The notes under the pieces are model-generated. The model was given only the letters and a program-made list of their open reading frames with translations. It did no database searches and was not told where the DNA came from. The position numbers and the translations under genes are program-made. A stretch of DNA of 47,909 nucleotides from a virus (taxonomy: Duplodnaviria > Heunggongvirae > Uroviricota > Caudoviricetes). The stretch is taken from IMG/VR virus record IMGVR_UViG_2718218171_000003, positions 1-47,909 of that record; one strand, written 5' to 3'. Positions 2,198 through 11,258 of the stretch are shown one piece after another (position 1 is the stretch's first letter; the number at the start of each line of letters is the position of its first letter).

Positions 2198-5100
2198 TTA
2201 TCTCGTAAAGCTAGTTTTATGACTTCCTGTTAGCTGACTGTCTTCATAATAAAATGCTCCACTAAACTCCTGTCGACCATAATGATGACTTGATGTGAGT
2301 GAGCCCCCTATAACGCCCTTTTCACCTAATAATGTCCAAACGATTTCAAAACCATTGTCCCTTAACATTGTTAAAAATGGTTCTTTTTTAACAAGTAGAT
2401 GCGGCTTTGAAGCATATACAGCTTCAGCTGCAAAGCAAACCATAGTTCCATTTTCATCATTGAAGCTACCCTCTACTTCCCCACTTTTTAATCCCATCTT
2501 TTCAAAGATTAAGTTACTAGGCTTCAAAAAATTCAAAGTTTCTATTTTTGATTTGTCGAACTCCTCTTCCCACAAATAATTAATCGAAGTGACACTAACA
2601 TCAGCAATCTTAGCTCCAGACTCCCGGTCTGTTACCGAAGTCCAGTCAGATCCACCATAATAATCTGATTTAAAAGACTTAAATGCTTCGGACCAATAGT
2701 ACTCCCTATTAAATAATTGGTATCTATCAGTACATTCCGGCATCCACCTGCCCATAAAGTCTTGAGCTATTGCCCAATATCTAAAATTTTCAAATTCTTC
2801 AACTTTAACGATATAACTTCTGATCTGATACCAAACCTCTTTTCGTGGGTGCCCCCAATCATCGTTTCCAATAATTTTTGGTTCTTTCCATGATGGATAA
2901 CTTTCTAATACTATCCATTCATCACCATTATCATCTTTAACTTCAATAAAAGCATATGAATTAGTTATAGTAGTAGAACTTTTAACCCAGTCTTCATTAG
3001 AGCAAGTCCAATCAAACACTTCATCATTAAGCCACCACATTTCTTTATTGCTTATTTTTTTCGTTCCAGTTTCTTTAAGTAAGATAGTGGGATCTATATC
3101 TCTTACGTAAGGCTCCCATGGCCCTTGGTATGGATTTTCCTTTCGTTCGTCACCATAACCTTCAAAACGAGTAAAATTATCGGCTAGCCTTGCCATGTAT
3201 TCATAATAAGCAATCCATTGGTATTTTTTACCAATCCGTTCTTGGAATGCCTCTCTACGTCCACGTCCAGTTCCTATTTGTTGGTCAAAATTACCATGCT
3301 TCTCCGGATCCCAACCAAGCTCTATAACACGATTGAATATAAATTGTTGAGCTAGTCGAAGATCAAAGTGTTTATCAGTTTCCAGCAGATTATTATTATG
3401 ATCCAGGTATGGCTCTATTTCATTTTCAAACTCACTTAACAGATCGTATGACAATGAATTCTTAAATAATTTCTTGCTCGCCTTTATTTCTTCCTGTGCT
3501 TTTCTACCGACCACACGACCAAATTTAATTCCTTCGCATTTATCATCATAAATGAAAGGATCTGTGGCATCATACAAATCTTTTTGTTGATCAGTTAGTT
3601 TACATTTGAAAGTTTTAAAAACTTGCTTACGGTCAACAGGGGTTTCATTAAACTTGCAACCAGACCAATCAGAATGATTATAATTTGTACCAATAGTATA
3701 TCGTGAAAAGTCACCACCTTCCATAATCGAGCTCCAGAGTTCCCGATAAGGTTCTTTATCATAAAGGGACTCTAGTTCCTCTTTTGAAGGAATCTTGTCA
3801 GGCCAAATGCTGTTGTAGGGTGGTCTAGTCTTGGATAATTCAATGCTTTCAAGTTCCAATCCAAGATGATTAGCAAATTCAATAATCTCTCTAGCATAAT
3901 CTCTAAGTAATATATTTGGATACACATACTCAGAACAAAATACCTTTTGGTAAACAGTTTCGGCTAAATATTTTAGTTCTTTAATATTATCAGTTCGCAA
4001 TGTACAGCCTAATGCAACTGCAAATATTCTTTCCCAAACGTAAGGATCATTTACACCATAAAACTTATCAATTATTTTTCTCAATACAGGAATTCTTGGC
4101 TCGAGTAAACTCACTAAAGCCTTGGTTGAGCAATCTCGAAGTTCTCGGTTACTAGAAGTTAAAAACCAGCATAAACTAGTTGCAACTAGCTCGATTGACT
4201 CATCCGAAACAAAGCTTTTATCTGTTCTGGCCCATGCCCAATCGATTAGATGCCTAAAAGCTGAGTCTTCACTATATTTATATTTAAGTTCTGTAGTCCA
4301 AAACGAATCTCGATTTGCCAAAGAATAATCTTTTAGCCAATCATGCAAGAAATTAGCATTAAAGGGATGGTCAACTAAACCTGAAATAGAGATCACTGCC
4401 TCGAGGAAATGATCAAAACTATCTTTAAATTTAAAAACATGTTCATTGATGAAAGGTCTAATTTTTTCGAAATCAATAGCCTTAATATCTCGCCATATCA
4501 AGCTATCAATAAAGGCTTCTAGTAATTTAAGATTATTGCTAAACTCCGGCAGAAATTCATAAAGCTCTTTTTCATACCTTTCTGGCAATTGAATAGACAG
4601 CGCCTCTACTATTCCCGATTTTATATAAAAATCACATTCATCATGAAAATATTTTTTCAGACGACCATCAGGCTTAAATTCACTTTCGATATTTTCAACA
4701 TCATTTAATAAAAAATTAACAGTTAAATGATCATCAAACCTTTCAAAAGCCACATAAACTACTTCCTCAGTAGAATTATCATCATTTCTCACTATGCCTT
4801 TAGTCAATAATCCTTCGTCAATCAAGGCGCTGAGGAAGGTTTTATCAGCAACATAATCATTAACTACAGATTGAACCACTGAGTGAGCATCTTTAAGTGA
4901 AATACTATTACGACCAATCTCTAATTTGAATTTTATGATTTCATTGAGAGCATCTTTAACAAGAGGAAAACTGGGATCGAATGCATATTTTCTTGGCGAT
5001 GCTAATGATTTATTTACCCCTTCCACTAAAAAGTTAAAAATATTTGAAATCCCATTAAATCCAACAGGCACTTTGGTTAAACCATTTTTCTTAATGCCTT

Positions 5101-6652
5101 CACACAATAACTTAAGAAATAGAGGGTTTTTAAACTCTGGATTAAGGTTAGGTGATGAAGGCCTCTCTATATTGTAATAATCATAAAATAGACTAACCGC
5201 TTCCAACTCAACGCTCTGAAATCCAATATGTTCATGAATTTCAAAATTATTTCGCTCAACATTCTCATGTGAAATTGTTACATTTCTATATGTTGTTCTG
5301 ACTGACATTATCAGACCAAGCCATTCAAAGCCTCTGATTTCATCGACAAAACTGTTAATATTGTCATTCCAGAATTTATTTCCATTACCTTCATTAATAG
5401 CATCAATAAAAACTAAGACTCTTTTTCCTGTTTTTTTGCCATATAAATTCAGTTTTTCTAGGAATTCACGAGAAGTGATTTTAAGCTGTAATCTCTTGAA
5501 GATTTGTGACCATGGAGATTCATCTGAAGTAAGTTGTTGCCCTAGTATGAGTAGAGAAGGATACCCAGAAGCAATTCGATTTTTAATCACATCAGCCAGT
5601 AAATGAGACTTACCAATTCCAGCTTTTCCTTCGAGAAGTAAGAATGGGTTGTTAGCCAACTTCACTGTTGTTGAATTAATGAATGTACGTAATTCATTGC
5701 ACGCATAGTCAAGTTCCCGAAGCATTCGCAGAGTAGATGAATACTTATCACTGTAATGCTTGGTTTCACCTACTTGTTCTGATTTTTCTCGGAGTTCCCA
5801 CAATATTGATTCCGCTCCGCCAATAGCTGTCTGGCAACTAGAAACATAGTTATTAAATTTATTTATAGGGATTTCATCTAATTTAGAAAAATTAATTTCT
5901 TGATATATATCAGAAATTTCTTTTAAGGACTGGTCTATTTCAGATAATTGTGAGGAAATTACATCGCAACTATGTAATTTCTTTCCAGTGACCAGAAAAC
6001 TATCTATATGCGAATAAAATATTTTAGAAAAATTATTAGTTCTACCGAGACCATCAAATATCTCTGCTATTTCTAGCTTTACGTTGAGTTCGGGTGTGTA
6101 TCGGCCTCCCAAGTCAGCTATTGCTTGACTACTTTTCTCATTTAACCAATCATCACTCAAGTGAAAAGTTAGTTTCTCATCTATAGACCGCAAAACAAGT
6201 TTAATTTGAATAAGCTCTTCATTAATATCGAATATTTTTTCTTTATAAGTTTCTTCGATATGTAGCTTTTTTAACTTCGAACAATTATTTATTTTTAACG
6301 ACAACATCCCATAAAAAAGGCTGAGTTGTTGTTGAGTTGGGGGAGTGACGCTTGGATATTCTTTGAACTTGTCTAATAACATCTCTTTGTCAGGGAACTC
6401 TTTAAAAAGGATGTGCTCATTCAACATCTCAAACAATGGTTTAGAATGATAAAATGGAATTGCTCCACTTTCTACTGGATATGTTTCTTCAAACTCAATT
6501 GCCGTCTCTTCAATTAGTTGATATAATCTATCCACATATTTTTCTGTGGGGAATAATGCTTTCTTAATCCAACTATATCCTTCTTGAGAAATGAATTGAT
6601 CAATAAGTTTAGTTGCTACATAAGTTGCCACTGTAATTGATATGGGTTCCAT
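2198..6652 (-). CDS. NACHT/STAND-type P-loop NTPase (NLR-like), 1484 aa; candidate antiphage defence protein
   Basis: Uninterrupted 4455-nt ORF; Walker A GKAGIGKS (aa 342-349, codons 5606-5629), Walker B-like VLVFIDAINE (aa 412-421), sensor-1-like LIMSVRTT (aa 447-454), NPLFLKLL helix; N-terminal about 330 aa and C-terminal about 900 aa without assignable motifs; strongly AT-rich unlike neighbouring phage genes; RBS GGAAGA 8 nt upstream of ATG. Confidence 0.7.
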   Translation of the reverse strand: MEPISITVATYVATKLIDQFISQEGYSWIKKALFPTEKYVDRLYQLIEETAIEFEETYPVESGAIPFYHSKPLFEMLNEHILFKEFPDKEMLLDKFKEYPSVTPPTQQQLSLFYGMLSLKINNCSKLKKLHIEETYKEKIFDINEELIQIKLVLRSIDEKLTFHLSDDWLNEKSSQAIADLGGRYTPELNVKLEIAEIFDGLGRTNNFSKIFYSHIDSFLVTGKKLHSCDVISSQLSEIDQSLKEISDIYQEINFSKLDEIPINKFNNYVSSCQTAIGGAESILWELREKSEQVGETKHYSDKYSSTLRMLRELDYACNELRTFINSTTVKLANNPFLLLEGKAGIGKSHLLADVIKNRIASGYPSLLILGQQLTSDESPWSQIFKRLQLKITSREFLEKLNLYGKKTGKRVLVFIDAINEGNGNKFWNDNINSFVDEIRGFEWLGLIMSVRTTYRNVTISHENVERNNFEIHEHIGFQSVELEAVSLFYDYYNIERPSSPNLNPEFKNPLFLKLLCEGIKKNGLTKVPVGFNGISNIFNFLVEGVNKSLASPRKYAFDPSFPLVKDALNEIIKFKLEIGRNSISLKDAHSVVQSVVNDYVADKTFLSALIDEGLLTKGIVRNDDNSTEEVVYVAFERFDDHLTVNFLLNDVENIESEFKPDGRLKKYFHDECDFYIKSGIVEALSIQLPERYEKELYEFLPEFSNNLKLLEAFIDSLIWRDIKAIDFEKIRPFINEHVFKFKDSFDHFLEAVISISGLVDHPFNANFLHDWLKDYSLANRDSFWTTELKYKYSEDSAFRHLIDWAWARTDKSFVSDESIELVATSLCWFLTSSNRELRDCSTKALVSLLEPRIPVLRKIIDKFYGVNDPYVWERIFAVALGCTLRTDNIKELKYLAETVYQKVFCSEYVYPNILLRDYAREIIEFANHLGLELESIELSKTRPPYNSIWPDKIPSKEELESLYDKEPYRELWSSIMEGGDFSRYTIGTNYNHSDWSGCKFNETPVDRKQVFKTFKCKLTDQQKDLYDATDPFIYDDKCEGIKFGRVVGRKAQEEIKASKKLFKNSLSYDLLSEFENEIEPYLDHNNNLLETDKHFDLRLAQQFIFNRVIELGWDPEKHGNFDQQIGTGRGRREAFQERIGKKYQWIAYYEYMARLADNFTRFEGYGDERKENPYQGPWEPYVRDIDPTILLKETGTKKISNKEMWWLNDEVFDWTCSNEDWVKSSTTITNSYAFIEVKDDNGDEWIVLESYPSWKEPKIIGNDDWGHPRKEVWYQIRSYIVKVEEFENFRYWAIAQDFMGRWMPECTDRYQLFNREYYWSEAFKSFKSDYYGGSDWTSVTDRESGAKIADVSVTSINYLWEEEFDKSKIETLNFLKPSNLIFEKMGLKSGEVEGSFNDENGTMVCFAAEAVYASKPHLLVKKEPFLTMLRDNGFEIVWTLLGEKGVIGGSLTSSHHYGRQEFSGAFYYEDSQLTGSHKTSFTR

Positions 6653-7183: not shown

Positions 7184-7471
7184 TTAACGGATCAACAGCC
7201 AGACCAGCAGACACACCACCACTGGCACAGCAAAATCCATCAGGCTTGCCACATCCCATGCACGAGGATCAAAACCGCCCCACCACGGCATGTTAATCCG
7301 CTTGCCATGCCCGAACATTTCAATCCAGCGATATTCTGCCTGGGTATGTTCACGAGCGATGAAGAACGTACAACCAGCTATCGCTCCGTAAGCCCAGTTC
7401 CCGGTAAAAAGACCAATCAGTAACTGCGCAGCCACAGCACAAAGCGCATGAAGGAAAGGTGTTATATCCAT
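7184..7471 (-). CDS. Small integral membrane protein (about 95 aa), function unknown
   Basis: Hydrophobic segments ALCAVAAQLLIGLF and FAVPVVVCLLVWLLI; ATG at 7471 with GGTAGGA RBS (track ORF extends to a TTG at 7486). Confidence 0.5.
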   Translation of the reverse strand: MDITPFLHALCAVAAQLLIGLFTGNWAYGAIAGCTFFIAREHTQAEYRWIEMFGHGKRINMPWWGGFDPRAWDVASLMDFAVPVVVCLLVWLLIR

Positions 7472-7486
7472 TTTCATCCTACCCAA

Positions 7487-7507
7487 TAAAACGGGGCGCT
7501 CGGCCCC
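7487..7507 (-). terminator. Rho-independent terminator after the tail-fibre gene
   Basis: Minus strand GGGGCCGAGCGCCCC hairpin followed by GTTTTATTGGG. Confidence 0.5.
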
Positions 7508-7513
7508 TTAATA

Positions 7514-8554
7514 TTATTTAGACGCAAGCGCCGCCTCAATTGCAGATAATCTTTGTCTTAATTCTGCGTTTTCTTCTTCCAGTGCTGTTATCCTGTCGTC
7601 TGACTCTCTGGCTACCTGAACAAGCAAACCTGTTACGCCTGAGTAATCAACGGTATAGTATCTTTCTCCCTCTTCTCCATCAGACCCATTGTCCCCGCTC
7701 TTGTACTTTATTGTGCTACCAACTGATTCAGGGATTGCATTAAGTGCCTCTTGCGCAATAACGCCAGCATAAGGCATACCATTAGACTTGAGACGGTATG
7801 TATATCCATTCATTAATCTGATGCGTTCAGTGGCATTGTCAATAACCTGAATATTTTCTTTAAGATCTCTGTCCGACACCTGGTCGAATGATGTTGCCTT
7901 GCATGGCCCGTTTATCTCAAGCTGATAGGTTTTATCTGGGTTCCTTTGTGCATAAAACAAAAAAAGCCCGCCATCATCCCTAATTTCATAAACAACTGGA
8001 CGACTGGAGTTTCCCCATAATAACGTCGATACACCAGAATACGCCGTACCTTGCGTGTTTAGTGTCATGGTCGAACCATGATTAGCGTATTTGATTTGTA
8101 ATGTGTCTGTGTAATCAAATTTAATAAGCGCGTTACTTCCCCGCACACCATACGACATGAGACAGTTCCCCATCTTGAGGTAACCATCACTGCCTGGAAA
8201 AATTAATGTTCCGCCGTAAAGATTACTAAAGTCCCACCAAATACCCTTTTCGCCATCTTTTACGTGTAGTCGCGCCATTGCAGCTTCATCGCCTGCAACA
8301 TTTTTTCGGGTATAAAACTCAGTATATACATCGATTTTATCGGCAGTCTTATGAATTGAACGATGTTTACCACCAAAGACAGTACCAGTTGTCGGCAAAG
8401 TACTATCTTTTTTGGTAGCATCCCAATCACCTAACACCTCGCGTTTACCATCAACATAGGATTTTGTTGCGTAGCTTCCAAGATCAGTTTTTAATTTGCT
8501 AACATCGGATTTTAGCGTTTTGATGTCATCAGGAATTACTGTCGATGTAGCCAT
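7514..8554 (-). CDS. Tail fibre-like protein with C-terminal intramolecular chaperone (peptidase S74-type) domain
   Basis: 346-aa ORF; motif SDRDLKENIQVIDNATERIRLMNGYTYRLK followed by GVIAQEALNAIPE and a terminal coiled coil ITALEEENAELRQRL, typical of self-cleaving chaperone domains of phage fibres. Confidence 0.7.
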   Translation of the reverse strand: MATSTVIPDDIKTLKSDVSKLKTDLGSYATKSYVDGKREVLGDWDATKKDSTLPTTGTVFGGKHRSIHKTADKIDVYTEFYTRKNVAGDEAAMARLHVKDGEKGIWWDFSNLYGGTLIFPGSDGYLKMGNCLMSYGVRGSNALIKFDYTDTLQIKYANHGSTMTLNTQGTAYSGVSTLLWGNSSRPVVYEIRDDGGLFLFYAQRNPDKTYQLEINGPCKATSFDQVSDRDLKENIQVIDNATERIRLMNGYTYRLKSNGMPYAGVIAQEALNAIPESVGSTIKYKSGDNGSDGEEGERYYTVDYSGVTGLLVQVARESDDRITALEEENAELRQRLSAIEAALASK

Positions 8555-8563
8555 TTTTCTTCC

Positions 8564-8845
8564 TCACATCCAGCCACGAAGTTGATGCTCAACAGCAACC
8601 GCGTATTCATCGAATAATGACGATATTTGCGAATCATTAATGATGCGCACGTTTACAAAATATCCGTCTTCCTTAACACATACCGGTTCGCCATCTTCAG
8701 TCAGTTCTCCGGTTTCTTTGTACACGTCACCTATCACGTCAATGAGAATATCATCCTGCATCGACTCGTCATCATAATAGCCAGTGCTATCCATAAAGGC
8801 CGAAAATTCGGCCCTGTCTTCAAATTTGAGTGTTAAATCTTTCAT
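8564..8845 (-). CDS. Acidic 93-aa protein, translationally coupled to stf (TAATG overlap), unknown function
   Basis: ORF start overlaps the stf stop codon by 1 nt; Asp/Glu-rich; no recognisable motif. Confidence 0.5.
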   Translation of the reverse strand: MKDLTLKFEDRAEFSAFMDSTGYYDDESMQDDILIDVIGDVYKETGELTEDGEPVCVKEDGYFVNVRIINDSQISSLFDEYAVAVEHQLRGWM

Positions 8846-11220
8846 TAGATTGACTCCCCCACCTGAGCATCAGTCAATGCCTTGTGCCATATTCTGAAAT
8901 TCCTGACATGACCAAATAAATGACGTAACCCGGCTGTAGTCTGGCCTCCAATACGGATAATTGCGGTGTTCTGAATACAGGACCATGTGGTTTTTGTTTC
9001 GCTGGATATATGCCCGTTACTTACTGAGCACGTAGACTGCTCTGACTTTACACGCATCCCCATAACCATTTTTTCAAGCGATGCGTTTTCGTTTACCCGT
9101 CTGTTAGCTCCTCCAATATCGCAATAAGGAAATCCGTCGTAATCTGTTGAACGACCGAAGCCAAGAATAATAGCCGCTCCGGTTTGATGACCGCCGGTAT
9201 CAAAAACACGTGGCGCTGCATTTGGCGTTTTATACCAGTTCTTATGTACCTCACAAAGAACCGTAAAAGGAAGATTATAAAGATTATTCTTAATTGGAAC
9301 TGTAACTATATCGCTTGCGCGGGTCGCCGCCGTCGCTCCTGATATAATAAAAGATGATACACAAGGCCCATCTTCTACTTGTGGGGTGGCCAGATAAATA
9401 TAGTCACCAGATACGGTTGCCCCGCTCTGCTTAGGAGAATACTGTATCTGAGAGCCTATTTTTAACTCCCCATCAATTGCCTGAATTGTTGCCTCTGCAA
9501 AAATCCATCCGGTAGCTTCGTCCTTTCTGACTCTCGCTGTAATCCTTGAGGCAGCACCGCCTGTCATATTAATTTCAAGCGTTTGTGTATCAATATACGC
9601 ATCACCAAGAAAAGTTGTTGCGCTACCGTCATATTTATCAAACCGGATACGCAACCTTACCTGCAGTTCTGTTTTAAAACGACATGAGGTTGTCACGTGT
9701 TTATTATCGCCTGAGACATCAACTGACTTTGTTGCAGCAATTGACGCCATATTAATGGCTGAGGTTTGCCCAATCAGAGAATCGTTGCAGACAAACTTTC
9801 CATAGGTAAAACCAAAATTATCCGTCCCTGTTTCGGGCACATCCATATTTGACGATCGCCCCCAACTGGCAGGGCTTTCCGAATTGAGCATGTAGTTTGT
9901 TCTTTGCCCCTCAATAAGCAGGCCATCACGTTCAAATCGTGGCTCGTCAATGGCAGCCTCTGTCAGCACACCAGATTTGTTAATATAGGTTGCTTTCGAT
10001 GCACGTTTAAACTTAACAATCTTGTCGCCAGGCATCGTTATTTCATCGTCACCAATAACAATTTTTTTATATGATGGCGAAAAGCCCGTAATCATATCCA
10101 GCGAATCGTTAAATGGTATCCACACATCAGGCAGCGGCTGTAAGACATATTTATACGGCTCCGCAGCCTGGCTTGCGTACTCTCTGGCTGCATCTTCGCT
10201 TGCTTTAGCTGCCGTCTGGCTTGCTGCCGATGCTTTCGCTGAGTTCGCAGCCGCTGTTTCGCTCACCTTTGCGTTGGTTTCACTGGTTTTTGCTGCTTTT
10301 TGACTGTTAGCTGATGCAGTGGCAGAAGCAGCCGCCGCGCTTGCAGAACTGGCTGCGGCACTCTCGCTTTGGGCCGCTGCATCCTGACTGCTTTTCGCCG
10401 CAGTTTCACTGGCTTTGGCATTCGTTTCGCTGGTCTTCGCTGCCGTCTGGCTGGACTTTGCGTTAGTTTCACTCGTCTTCGCAGCTTTCTGGCTGTTAGC
10501 CGCAGCAGTTGCTGATCCAGCTGCTGAAGTCGCAGAACCGGCTGCCGCGCTCTCGCTTTGGGCTGCTGCAACCTGGCTGTTTTTTGCCGCAGTTTCACTG
10601 GCTTTGGCATTCGTTTCGCTGGTTTTCGCTGCCGTCTGGCTGGACTTTGCGTTGGTTTCGCTCGTCTTTGCGGCTGTCTCGCTATTTTTCGCGTTGGTTT
10701 CTGATTTTTTGGCTGCTGTCGCGGAGTTTTCTGATGCAGTCTGTGAGGTCGCTGCCGTCTGTGCACTATTAGCTGCATTCGTTTCTGAGGTTTTCGCCGC
10801 GTTCTTCGATGATGCCGCTGCAGTTTCGGATTTCTTTGCCGCCGCTGCGCTCTGAGAGGCGGCTTCGGCGTTGCGTGCCACTTCTTCCACCATTGCCTCA
10901 AAACGACGCAATGCCTCCGGCATGACATCATCTTCCGTCATGGCACCGAGAAAATCATTCAGCGTACCTGGTCTGGAGCCTTCATAGACGGTAATGGTCC
11001 CGGCATGTGAAGGCGGAAAACCTTCAACCAGCAGGATGACGCTGTACTGGCCATGCTCAACATCCATGCTGTAACGCCCGGCTTCATCCGGATTTTCAGA
11101 GGCCACCGTGTTCACCAGTACCGTGGTGCTGTTACGCTTTGCCTTCAGTTGAATAGTGCAGTTCTGTATTGGTTTTCCCGCACCATCTTTCAGCACACCT
11201 GAGATTTTTACTGCTGCCAT
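8845..11220 (-). CDS. stf: Side tail fibre protein (Stf-like), 791 aa, lambda-like N-terminus with a repetitive shaft and a distinct C-terminal domain
   Basis: N-terminus MAVKISGVLKDG...GFPPSHAGTITVYE matches lambda Stf; ATG at 11220 with GGAG RBS; Ala/Ser/Thr/Lys-rich repeats; C-terminus ends GHVRNFRIWHKALTDAQVGE (lectin/LamG-like signature, inferred). Confidence 0.85.
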   Translation of the reverse strand: MAAVKISGVLKDGAGKPIQNCTIQLKAKRNSTTVLVNTVASENPDEAGRYSMDVEHGQYSVILLVEGFPPSHAGTITVYEGSRPGTLNDFLGAMTEDDVMPEALRRFEAMVEEVARNAEAASQSAAAAKKSETAAASSKNAAKTSETNAANSAQTAATSQTASENSATAAKKSETNAKNSETAAKTSETNAKSSQTAAKTSETNAKASETAAKNSQVAAAQSESAAAGSATSAAGSATAAANSQKAAKTSETNAKSSQTAAKTSETNAKASETAAKSSQDAAAQSESAAASSASAAAASATASANSQKAAKTSETNAKVSETAAANSAKASAASQTAAKASEDAAREYASQAAEPYKYVLQPLPDVWIPFNDSLDMITGFSPSYKKIVIGDDEITMPGDKIVKFKRASKATYINKSGVLTEAAIDEPRFERDGLLIEGQRTNYMLNSESPASWGRSSNMDVPETGTDNFGFTYGKFVCNDSLIGQTSAINMASIAATKSVDVSGDNKHVTTSCRFKTELQVRLRIRFDKYDGSATTFLGDAYIDTQTLEINMTGGAASRITARVRKDEATGWIFAEATIQAIDGELKIGSQIQYSPKQSGATVSGDYIYLATPQVEDGPCVSSFIISGATAATRASDIVTVPIKNNLYNLPFTVLCEVHKNWYKTPNAAPRVFDTGGHQTGAAIILGFGRSTDYDGFPYCDIGGANRRVNENASLEKMVMGMRVKSEQSTCSVSNGHISSETKTTWSCIQNTAIIRIGGQTTAGLRHLFGHVRNFRIWHKALTDAQVGESI
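10180..10668. repeat. In-frame tandem repeats inside stf (unit about 189 bp = 63 aa, two full copies plus a partial third)
   Basis: Protein repeats KTSETNAKSSQTAAKTSETNAKASETAAK...ANSQKAA at aa 187-249 and 250-312; near-identical DNA segments about 189 nt apart. Confidence 0.7.
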
Positions 11221-11229
11221 ATCCACTCC

Positions 11230-11258
11230 ACAAAAAAGCCCGCCTGAACCGGCGGGCT
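11230..11258 (-). terminator. Rho-independent terminator between lom and stf
   Basis: Minus strand AGCCCGCC-GGTTCA-GGCGGGCT hairpin followed by TTTTTTGTGG. Confidence 0.55.

Follow-up and report, generated by a model that had tools for sequence, protein, structure and literature searches.

Organization of the stf-p93-p346 region

The window analysed here is a stretch of 47,909 nucleotides (nt), IMG/VR virus record IMGVR_UViG_2718218171_000003, from a lambda-like prophage of Escherichia coli. Its tail fibre region contains three consecutive genes, all located on the minus strand (coordinates are window positions): stf (8845..11226), coding for a proximal side tail fibre of 793 amino acids (aa); the p93 gene (8564..8845), coding for a 93-aa acidic alpha/beta protein considered here an accessory of the Stf tip; and the p346 gene (7514..8554), coding for a 346-aa protein, the predicted precursor of a distal, second fibre with a self-cleaving chaperone domain at its C-terminus.

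The ATG of p93 lies within the stop codon of stf (TAATG), and p346 has a ribosome binding site of its own, GAGGA, situated 7 nt before its ATG. Together these genes make up a block, 7493-11258, bounded by terminator-like hairpins. The upstream one (11237..11258, minus strand) lies between lom and stf and has an 8-pair stem with 7 GC pairs and a T run; a terminator is annotated in the same position in phage 21. The downstream one (7493..7507, minus strand), GGGGCCGAGCGCCCC followed by a T run, is located directly 3' of p346. The open reading frames (ORFs) of the cassette are long, intact and strongly matched by known families, so that chance is not an issue.

Residues 5-134 of Stf matched PF08400 in Pfam (E=8.6e-67), the full-length protein matched phrog_1419, and the tail fiber N-domain of PDB entry 9e7m was matched with E=6.8e-49. 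Residues 5-345 showed 58% identity over 341 aa to lambda Stf orf-401; no similarity to lambda orf-314 was found in the remainder of the protein, and no S74 domain was matched in Stf by Pfam. Judged by these similarities, Stf starts with a lambda-type tail-attachment domain, followed by an Ala-rich repeat shaft and then by a lectin-like tip that is not of lambda type. The shaft includes, at 10267-10683, 2.2 copies of a 189-nt (63-aa) tandem repeat of the AAKTSETNAK type, rich in Ala, Ser and Thr; spurious ORFs of considerable length also arise from this repeat region, in its other frames as well as on the opposite strand (10263..10931 and 10415..10855 among them).

The distal part of Stf, residues ~362-793 (8848..10143, minus strand), is a mobile module: homologues were found in the lateral fibres of T5-like, Nonagvirus/Seuratvirus, Drexlerviridae, Dhillonvirus and rV5-like phages. 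Within this module, aa 437-637 matched a beta-sandwich of the GTA head-spike-fibre type (NCBIfam NF048003 GTA_spike_fiber, E=3.3e-13). The LamG/ConA-like end (aa ~737-789) gave a weak match to Laminin_G_3, with E=0.0056, under the family cutoff. The C-terminus carries the conserved sequence IRIGGQT..G.RHLFGHVRNFRIWHKALTD, and the RHLFGHxRNFRxW C-terminus was kept in all 15 fibres compared.

In p346, residues 227-278 matched PF13884 Peptidase_S74 (E=1.6e-12; 48 bits against a cutoff of 22), which assigns the protein to this family by sequence. All 346 positions were covered by phrog_4563, tail fiber protein (E=2.8e-191), and p346 is identical to the E. coli protein WP_073461898.1, labelled at NCBI as "peptidase S74 / tail fiber domain-containing protein". 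It is, therefore, an already annotated protein of a well-known kind.

An earlier note on this DNA, made from its letters, had described the acidic protein overlapping the stf stop codon and, at the C-terminus of p346, an intramolecular chaperone signature with a terminal coiled coil. Both descriptions agree with our results. The motifs SDRDLKENIQVID (SDRDLK), GYTYRLK and GVIAQE were located from residues 227, 250 and 264, respectively, and the AlphaFold2 (AF2) monomer model places a C-terminal helix, presumed to form the coiled coil, at residues 304-345 (7520-7645, minus strand; pLDDT, the score of the predicted local distance difference test, ~65-85). The S74 intramolecular chaperone domain comprises residues 227-346 (7517..7876, minus strand; S227 codon, 7874-7876). 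S227 and K232, which show the S-x4-K spacing, were invariant in all 23 aligned relatives of p346, as was much of the domain.

In S74 domains the C-terminal triple coiled coil drives trimerisation; S587 and K592 of MyRF correspond to S911 and K916 of endoNF, and cleavage occurs N-terminal of the Ser (PMC8326128). Since MyRF and endoNF are cut N-terminal of the catalytic Ser, the scissile bond of p346 is predicted to be V226|S227. By homology, autocleavage would give a mature product of 226 aa, instead of the approximately 235 aa proposed previously, and a released chaperone of 120 aa.

The family profile of p346, compared with PDB sequences, matched the chaperone domain of S16 gp37 (6F45, E=6e-8), the MyRF ICA (E=0.02) and the trimeric fibre repeats of T4 gp34 (4UXE and 5NXF, E=2e-7). 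The gp34-like repeat spans residues ~166-219 (7898..8059, minus strand), just upstream of the predicted cleavage site, and contains the residues W180, G181, R185, V188, E190, N215 and G216, invariant in the 23-sequence alignment. A trimeric fibre fold of p346 would be in keeping with the gp34 and S16 gp37 matches. The AF2 monomer was a poor model (mean pLDDT 58.9), in which a helix at residues 11-28 was nevertheless predicted in addition to the C-terminal one.

The N-terminal anchor of p346, residues 1-30 (8465..8554, minus strand), consists of MATSTVIPDDIKTLK and the start of a coiled coil. It is followed by a variable segment, residues 31-105 (8240..8464, minus strand), which is a candidate receptor-contact surface: among close alleles, block conservation was 0.59-0.72 in this segment, compared with 0.82-0.97 in the anchor and chaperone domain. 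Homologues of p346 with a coverage of 80% of the gene or more were present in 592 of 5,426 complete RefSeq E. coli genomes, the full-length allele showing at most 88.9% DNA identity in any of them. Inversion or another diversity-generating mechanism was considered as a source of the variable region, but no invertase or reverse transcriptase was apparent in the neighbourhood, which was not searched specifically for them.

The product of p93 has an isoelectric point (pI) of 4.05, with 23 Asp and Glu residues against 7 Lys and Arg. It belongs to PHROG 1361, listed as of unknown function, and gave no match in Pfam, NCBIfam or PADLOC, nor could a related PDB entry be found by sequence or by family profile. 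The AF2 model is a confident small alpha/beta fold (pLDDT 86.5) for which no informative structural neighbour was found, and which showed no similarity to LtfC or to known adaptors. The earlier note had held that no lambda-type Tfa follows stf; in agreement with this, comparison of p93 with lambda Tfa gave an hhalign probability of 0.04%, and the two proteins are regarded as unrelated. No homology to T4 gp35, gp38 or gp57A was obtained by any search run.

The p93 family is narrow, with 53 representative clusters among 1.84 billion proteins, yet frequent: 181 phage records contain a member, and so do hundreds of E. coli clusters. Two metagenomic proteins (P0256, 1,797 aa, and P0271, 2,928 aa) matched the central hairpin of p93, residues ~32-63 (E=1.4e-11 and 1.1e-5); these matches were judged to be repeat-driven and were rejected. 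Both proteins contain 5-9 tandem repeats with an IG-x-Y-like motif, resembling Ig-like modules of surface proteins. No experimental study of the p93 family, or of the cassette in lambdoid phages, was found in the literature.

Distribution of the cassette and linkage of its parts

The virulent Nonagvirus ESCO3 has the segment from stf residue ~362 through p346 with ~89% DNA identity, and the full block occurs with ~92% identity in the isolated lambdoid phages 2G7b, Tritos, HannyBb and PhiR63_1. The trio also occurs, with distant p346 relatives of 326-348 aa, in a T5-like contig, in a 9g-like contig with queuosine genes and in another siphovirus, as well as in IrisVonRoten (gp22-gp24), KarlJaspers, VogelGryff, KarlBarth, EC100, phA11 and mar004NP2. 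Sequence comparison thus places the same trio on lambdoid, T5-like, T1-like, Dhillonvirus and 9g-like backbones. The mosaic origin suggested for the receptor-binding module is in agreement with the non-lambda distal module and its copy in ESCO3. What is exchanged, however, is the distal part of stf together with the two following genes, and not tfa alone. The cassette is common, and in other respects this is the mosaicism expected of tail fibres.

In all these trios, homology of the fibre extends from the shaft to the end IRxGGQT..G.RHLFGHxRNFRxWHKxLTD, the first ~40-150 residues alone being specific to the tail type, and a p93-type gene overlaps or abuts the fibre stop codon. The distal proteins, in T5-like phages, Nonagvirus, Drexlerviridae and Dhillonvirus, start with M-[AV]-T-x-T-x-IP-x-DI-x-x-LK. 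An intact distal gene no more than 45 nt from the p93 stop codon was present at 72 of the 75 informative loci with a p93 homologue, and its product starts with MATSTVIP (MAISTVIP in one). In all 18 phage records present in both search lists, the start of the anchor followed downstream at a distance of ~10-100 nt from the p93 gene. p93, the fibre end and the anchor are tightly linked segments. Since the anchor remains constant while the tail backbone changes, its partner should lie inside the cassette, and the anchor has the sequence characteristics of a portable plug.

The slot after p93 holds a distal protein of either the 346-aa or the 234-aa type, both with S74 domains. The two types have only their first 31 residues in common (74% identity), and the 234-aa type has a divergent S74 domain of its own (E=4.6e-6). 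This shorter type was observed at 24 IMG/VR loci, for example at 8292..8996 of locus L046. Following the same cleavage rule, its scissile bond would lie before the first Ser of SSIRYK, leaving a predicted mature part of ~115 aa, composed of the anchor, a coiled coil and ~50 more residues.

In KarlBarth (Dhillonvirus) and mar004NP2 the anchor heads a 98-aa protein that is followed by further fibre proteins. Taking all such cases, the anchor was located on a separate protein of 64-98 aa, followed by one or two fibre proteins, at three loci: L094, 3270..4149 (KarlBarth); L108, 2789..4561 (mar004NP2); and L097, where the anchor protein starts at +9 after the p93 homologue. The arrangements in mar004NP2 and L097 look like split or frameshifted versions of an IrisVonRoten-type gp24. 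Separate anchor proteins could belong to multi-subunit distal fibres or could be due to sequencing or pseudogene artefacts.

Four phages with the same type of fibre tip, phage 21, ev207, ev243 and PhiR41_1, have kept p93 intact in the absence of a distal fibre, and the rV5-like phage CarlMeissner has a divergent form of p93 and no distal fibre. The retention of p93 in such phages indicates that its primary partner is the fibre tip and not the second fibre. This refines the earlier description of the locus: from the distribution of the genes, p93 is tied to the type of stf tip. The pI values agree with such a pairing. Those of the p93 family are 4.05-4.5, and those of the last 160 aa of the fibre are 9.2-9.6 in all siphovirus and lambdoid examples and 7.9 in CarlMeissner. 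As calculated from the sequences, the charge complementarity between p93 and the fibre C-terminus holds across the family.

Short fragments annotated as "tail fiber assembly protein" were found downstream in two related lambdoid phages, 2G7b (L001, 1769..2067) and ev243 (L095, 4500..4929). They have the appearance of remnants of a lambda-type tfa that stayed in place on replacement of the distal fibre module.

Two genes lying beyond the terminator-like hairpin of p346 were also analysed. The gene at 7184..7486 (minus strand) codes for a predicted membrane protein of ~95-100 aa (phrog_1443, function unknown); the counterparts in 2G7b and phage 21 are 92-96% identical and carry an annotation of two transmembrane domains. 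No match was obtained in PADLOC or NCBIfam. The Nonagvirus copy of the cassette does not include this gene, which is thus a lambdoid neighbour located outside the module, with a possible function in lysogenic conversion or exclusion. About 530 bp further on, 2198..6652 (minus strand) codes for a 1,484-aa anti-phage STAND NTPase, Avs2 (AVAST type 2), identified by PADLOC (Avs2, E=0) and by the NCBIfam equivalog NF041813 (1,695 bits). This gene looks like defence cargo carried in the variable region that follows the tail fibre genes of lambdoid prophages.

Proposed fibre assembly and alternative explanations

Together, these results suggest that the region 7493-11258 is probably a cassette of three genes that together specify a bipartite side tail fibre. 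Stf would trimerise and dock on the tail tip via its lambda-type N-terminal domain, and its distal ~430 residues would form a trimeric base with protruding lectin-like beta-sandwich domains. p93 would be synthesised in step with Stf through translational coupling and would act on the basic C-terminal domain of Stf, most likely as a folding or assembly factor, taking the role of Tfa though unrelated to it; a permanent attachment as an adaptor is a less likely alternative. p346 would trimerise through the C-terminal coiled coil of its S74 domain, fold from the C- to the N-terminus and cut itself at V226|S227, using Ser227 and Lys232, to free the 120-aa chaperone. The mature trimer of 226-aa chains would then plug its anchor, MATSTVIPDDIKTLK and the short coiled coil, onto distal Stf. 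Each side fibre would thereby carry two receptor-binding elements, probably for surface glycans.

A candidate docking site for the anchor is the EITMP segment of Stf, PSYKKIVIGDDEITMPGDKIVKFKRAS, residues 384-409 (10000..10077, minus strand), proposed from co-occurrence. The motif [EV][IV][TK][MLW]P was present in 22 of 22 fibres with an anchor-bearing distal gene and in none of five fibres without one, a correlation that is statistically weak because these five fibres represent two lineages. It is replaced by VVQVAS in phage 21, ev207, ev243 and PhiR41_1 and deleted in CarlMeissner, all of which have no distal gene. The segment should be taken as a lead and not as a result.

Besides the small number of lineages behind this correlation, several other points weigh against the proposed assembly. 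The presence of p346 and p93 in virions, the cleavage of p346 and its binding to Stf are all deduced from the genes. The poor AF2 monomer of p346 gave no Foldseek match in the PDB at E<=0.001 and is uninformative on the fold. Variation in p346 is centred on residues 31-105 and not beside the chaperone domain, where the tip of T5-type fibres sits. In the study of phage IrisVonRoten, compared below, the attachment of the second fibre protein was assumed, Gp22 and Gp24 having been modelled separately, and Gp23, the p93 homologue, was neither modelled nor discussed (PMC11990801 S7 Table).

We consider it somewhat probable that p93 is a dedicated assembly factor for the lectin-like tip, and we favour this over a retained adaptor, although the available data do not separate the two. 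As a structural adaptor or hinge, p93 would sit on the lectin-like tip and form or complete a socket for distal anchors. Its constant position between the fibre gene and the distal gene, with the anchor so close to its stop codon, would be expected of such a protein, as would the finding that three elements of the cassette are conserved, namely p93, the end of the fibre and the anchor, while the rest varies; gp23 of IrisVonRoten is labelled "tail fiber protein" in GenBank, and in DT57C the small LtfC provides a precedent by holding fibre N-termini through strand addition (PMC10713586). However, p93 is intact in phages that form plaques without a distal fibre (phage 21, ev207 and ev243), it has no structural similarity to LtfC or to any known adaptor, and it is a segment of Stf, not of p93, whose occurrence goes along with that of a distal fibre. 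The adaptor role is accordingly possible but doubtful. Equally tentative is the extended proposal that p93, as an uncharacterised accessory family, could form with the EITMP segment a socket for any distal protein bearing the plug M-x-T-x-T-x-IP-x-DI-x-x-LK.

In the case of p346, homologues in ESCO3, KarlJaspers, VogelGryff and JK16 are labelled in GenBank as, for instance, "endosialidase chaperone" or "putative lateral tail fiber chaperone", and Stf itself has no S74 domain, as if p346 were a chaperone acting in trans on Stf and not a fibre of the virion. We infer that these labels most likely repeat the description of PF13884, "Chaperone of endosialidase". In the characterised cases considered here the S74 domain acts on its own polypeptide chain (PMC8326128); the anchor, coiled coil, gp34-like repeats and allele-variable region of p346 are typical of receptor-binding proteins, and phages of the phage 21 type have the same Stf tip and no p346. 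A trans-acting chaperone is therefore very improbable. That p346 could be a true second fibre bound straight to the tail tip or baseplate, with no involvement of Stf, also seems improbable, though less so. Some phages do carry several independently attached fibres (PMC11990801), and the link between p346 and Stf comes from genes and not from physical data. The anchor is, however, shared by tails of the lambda-like, T5-like, T1-like, Dhillonvirus and 9g-like types, which have different tip proteins, and nothing but the Stf tip and p93 is constantly found next to it. It is similarly unlikely that the cassette is an inactive relic, intact by chance or recently silenced. Defective prophages are common in E. 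coli, disrupted copies of the distal gene occur at two of the loci analysed (L019 and L030), and stf is broken in lambda PaPa (PMC11990801); but all three ORFs of the cassette are full length, the catalytic residues are intact, and the cassettes with ~92% identity come from phages that have been isolated (2G7b, Tritos, HannyBb and PhiR63_1).

The first step of host recognition is determined by the side and lateral tail fibres, whose modules phage engineers exchange to retarget particles. Here, a lambdoid prophage carries the same distal cassette as virulent coliphages of the T5-like, T1-like and 9g-like groups. A constant N-terminal plug on interchangeable distal fibres would offer a portable unit for the host-range engineering of lambda-based vectors. 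If the plug and socket exist as proposed, lambdoid, T1-like, T5-like, Dhillonvirus and 9g-like phages could exchange distal receptor-binding fibres with the rest of the tail unchanged. Two small, testable questions also arise from the cassette: what p93 does, and where the distal fibre docks.

Comparison with known fibre systems

The lateral fibres of small siphoviruses and T5-like phages can be composed of one or several proteins (PMC8594841). In lambda, stf (orf-401 and orf-314) and tfa occupy the same slot after J and lom, and a small gene likewise follows stf. The present cassette differs in that the distal half of Stf is unrelated to orf-314, p93 is unrelated to Tfa and a further fibre gene is present. 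The long tail fibre of T4 (gp34-gp35-gp36-gp37) is also built of proximal and distal trimers, and the segment of p346 preceding the chaperone domain resembles the gp34 repeats; the size and architecture of the T4 fibre are different from those of the cassette.

The S74 domains of the K1F endosialidase, T5 pb1, S16 gp37 and MyRF share with p346 the S-x4-K pair and the C-terminal position, and have the terminal triple coiled coil that is predicted for p346. Compared with other S74 proteins, p346 has a very short passenger (226 aa predicted) with no enzymatic domain.

For DT57C there is genetic evidence that LtfB is attached through LtfA (PMC4728585, PMC10713586). Like p346, LtfB of DT57C and DT571/2 has a conserved N-terminus, is attached via the first fibre (for p346, as proposed here) and has a C-terminal pfam13884 domain, which is self-cleaving in LtfB and predicted to be so in p346; LtfB adds a second receptor specificity (PMC4728585, PMC10713586). 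On the other hand, LtfA and LtfB both have S74 domains, whereas Stf has none, no small gene lies between ltfA and ltfB (gp108 and gp107), and LtfB differs from p346 in its anchor, which is of phiEco32 gp15 type. A tblastn search with the p346 anchor yielded 60 phage records, DT57C and phiEco32 not among them. By these features, Stf and p346 do not appear to have the LtfA/LtfB build of DT57C.

The genes gp22-gp23-gp24 of IrisVonRoten (Tequintavirus, BASEL Bas32) have the same order as stf, p93 and p346, and likewise overlap or abut. Gp22 showed 54% identity over 755 aa to residues 115-793 of Stf, including the RHLFGHxRNFRIWHK end; gp23 is a homologue of p93 (38% identity, E=2e-15); and gp24 starts with MVTKTVIPTDITKLK, where p346 has MATSTVIPDDIKTLK, and ends in an S74 chaperone domain. 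The two systems differ in the tail anchor of the fibre, which is of T5 type in IrisVonRoten and of lambda type in Stf, and in the distal protein: gp24 is a T-shaped dual-domain fibre of 574 aa, compared with the 346 aa of p346, and the two have only the anchor and the chaperone domain in common. The distal Gp24 has been proposed to attach to the proximal Gp22, which has a protruding galectin-like C-terminal domain (PMC11990801); residues 339-796 of Gp22 gave a confident homotrimer model showing this domain (pLDDT 95.4; PMC11990801 S7 Table). Stf, p93 and p346 have the fibre end, the overlap with a p93-family gene and the distal start M-x-T-x-T-x-IP-x-DI-x-x-LK that characterise the IrisVonRoten trio and, judged by these sequence features, the prophage cassette belongs to the IrisVonRoten type.

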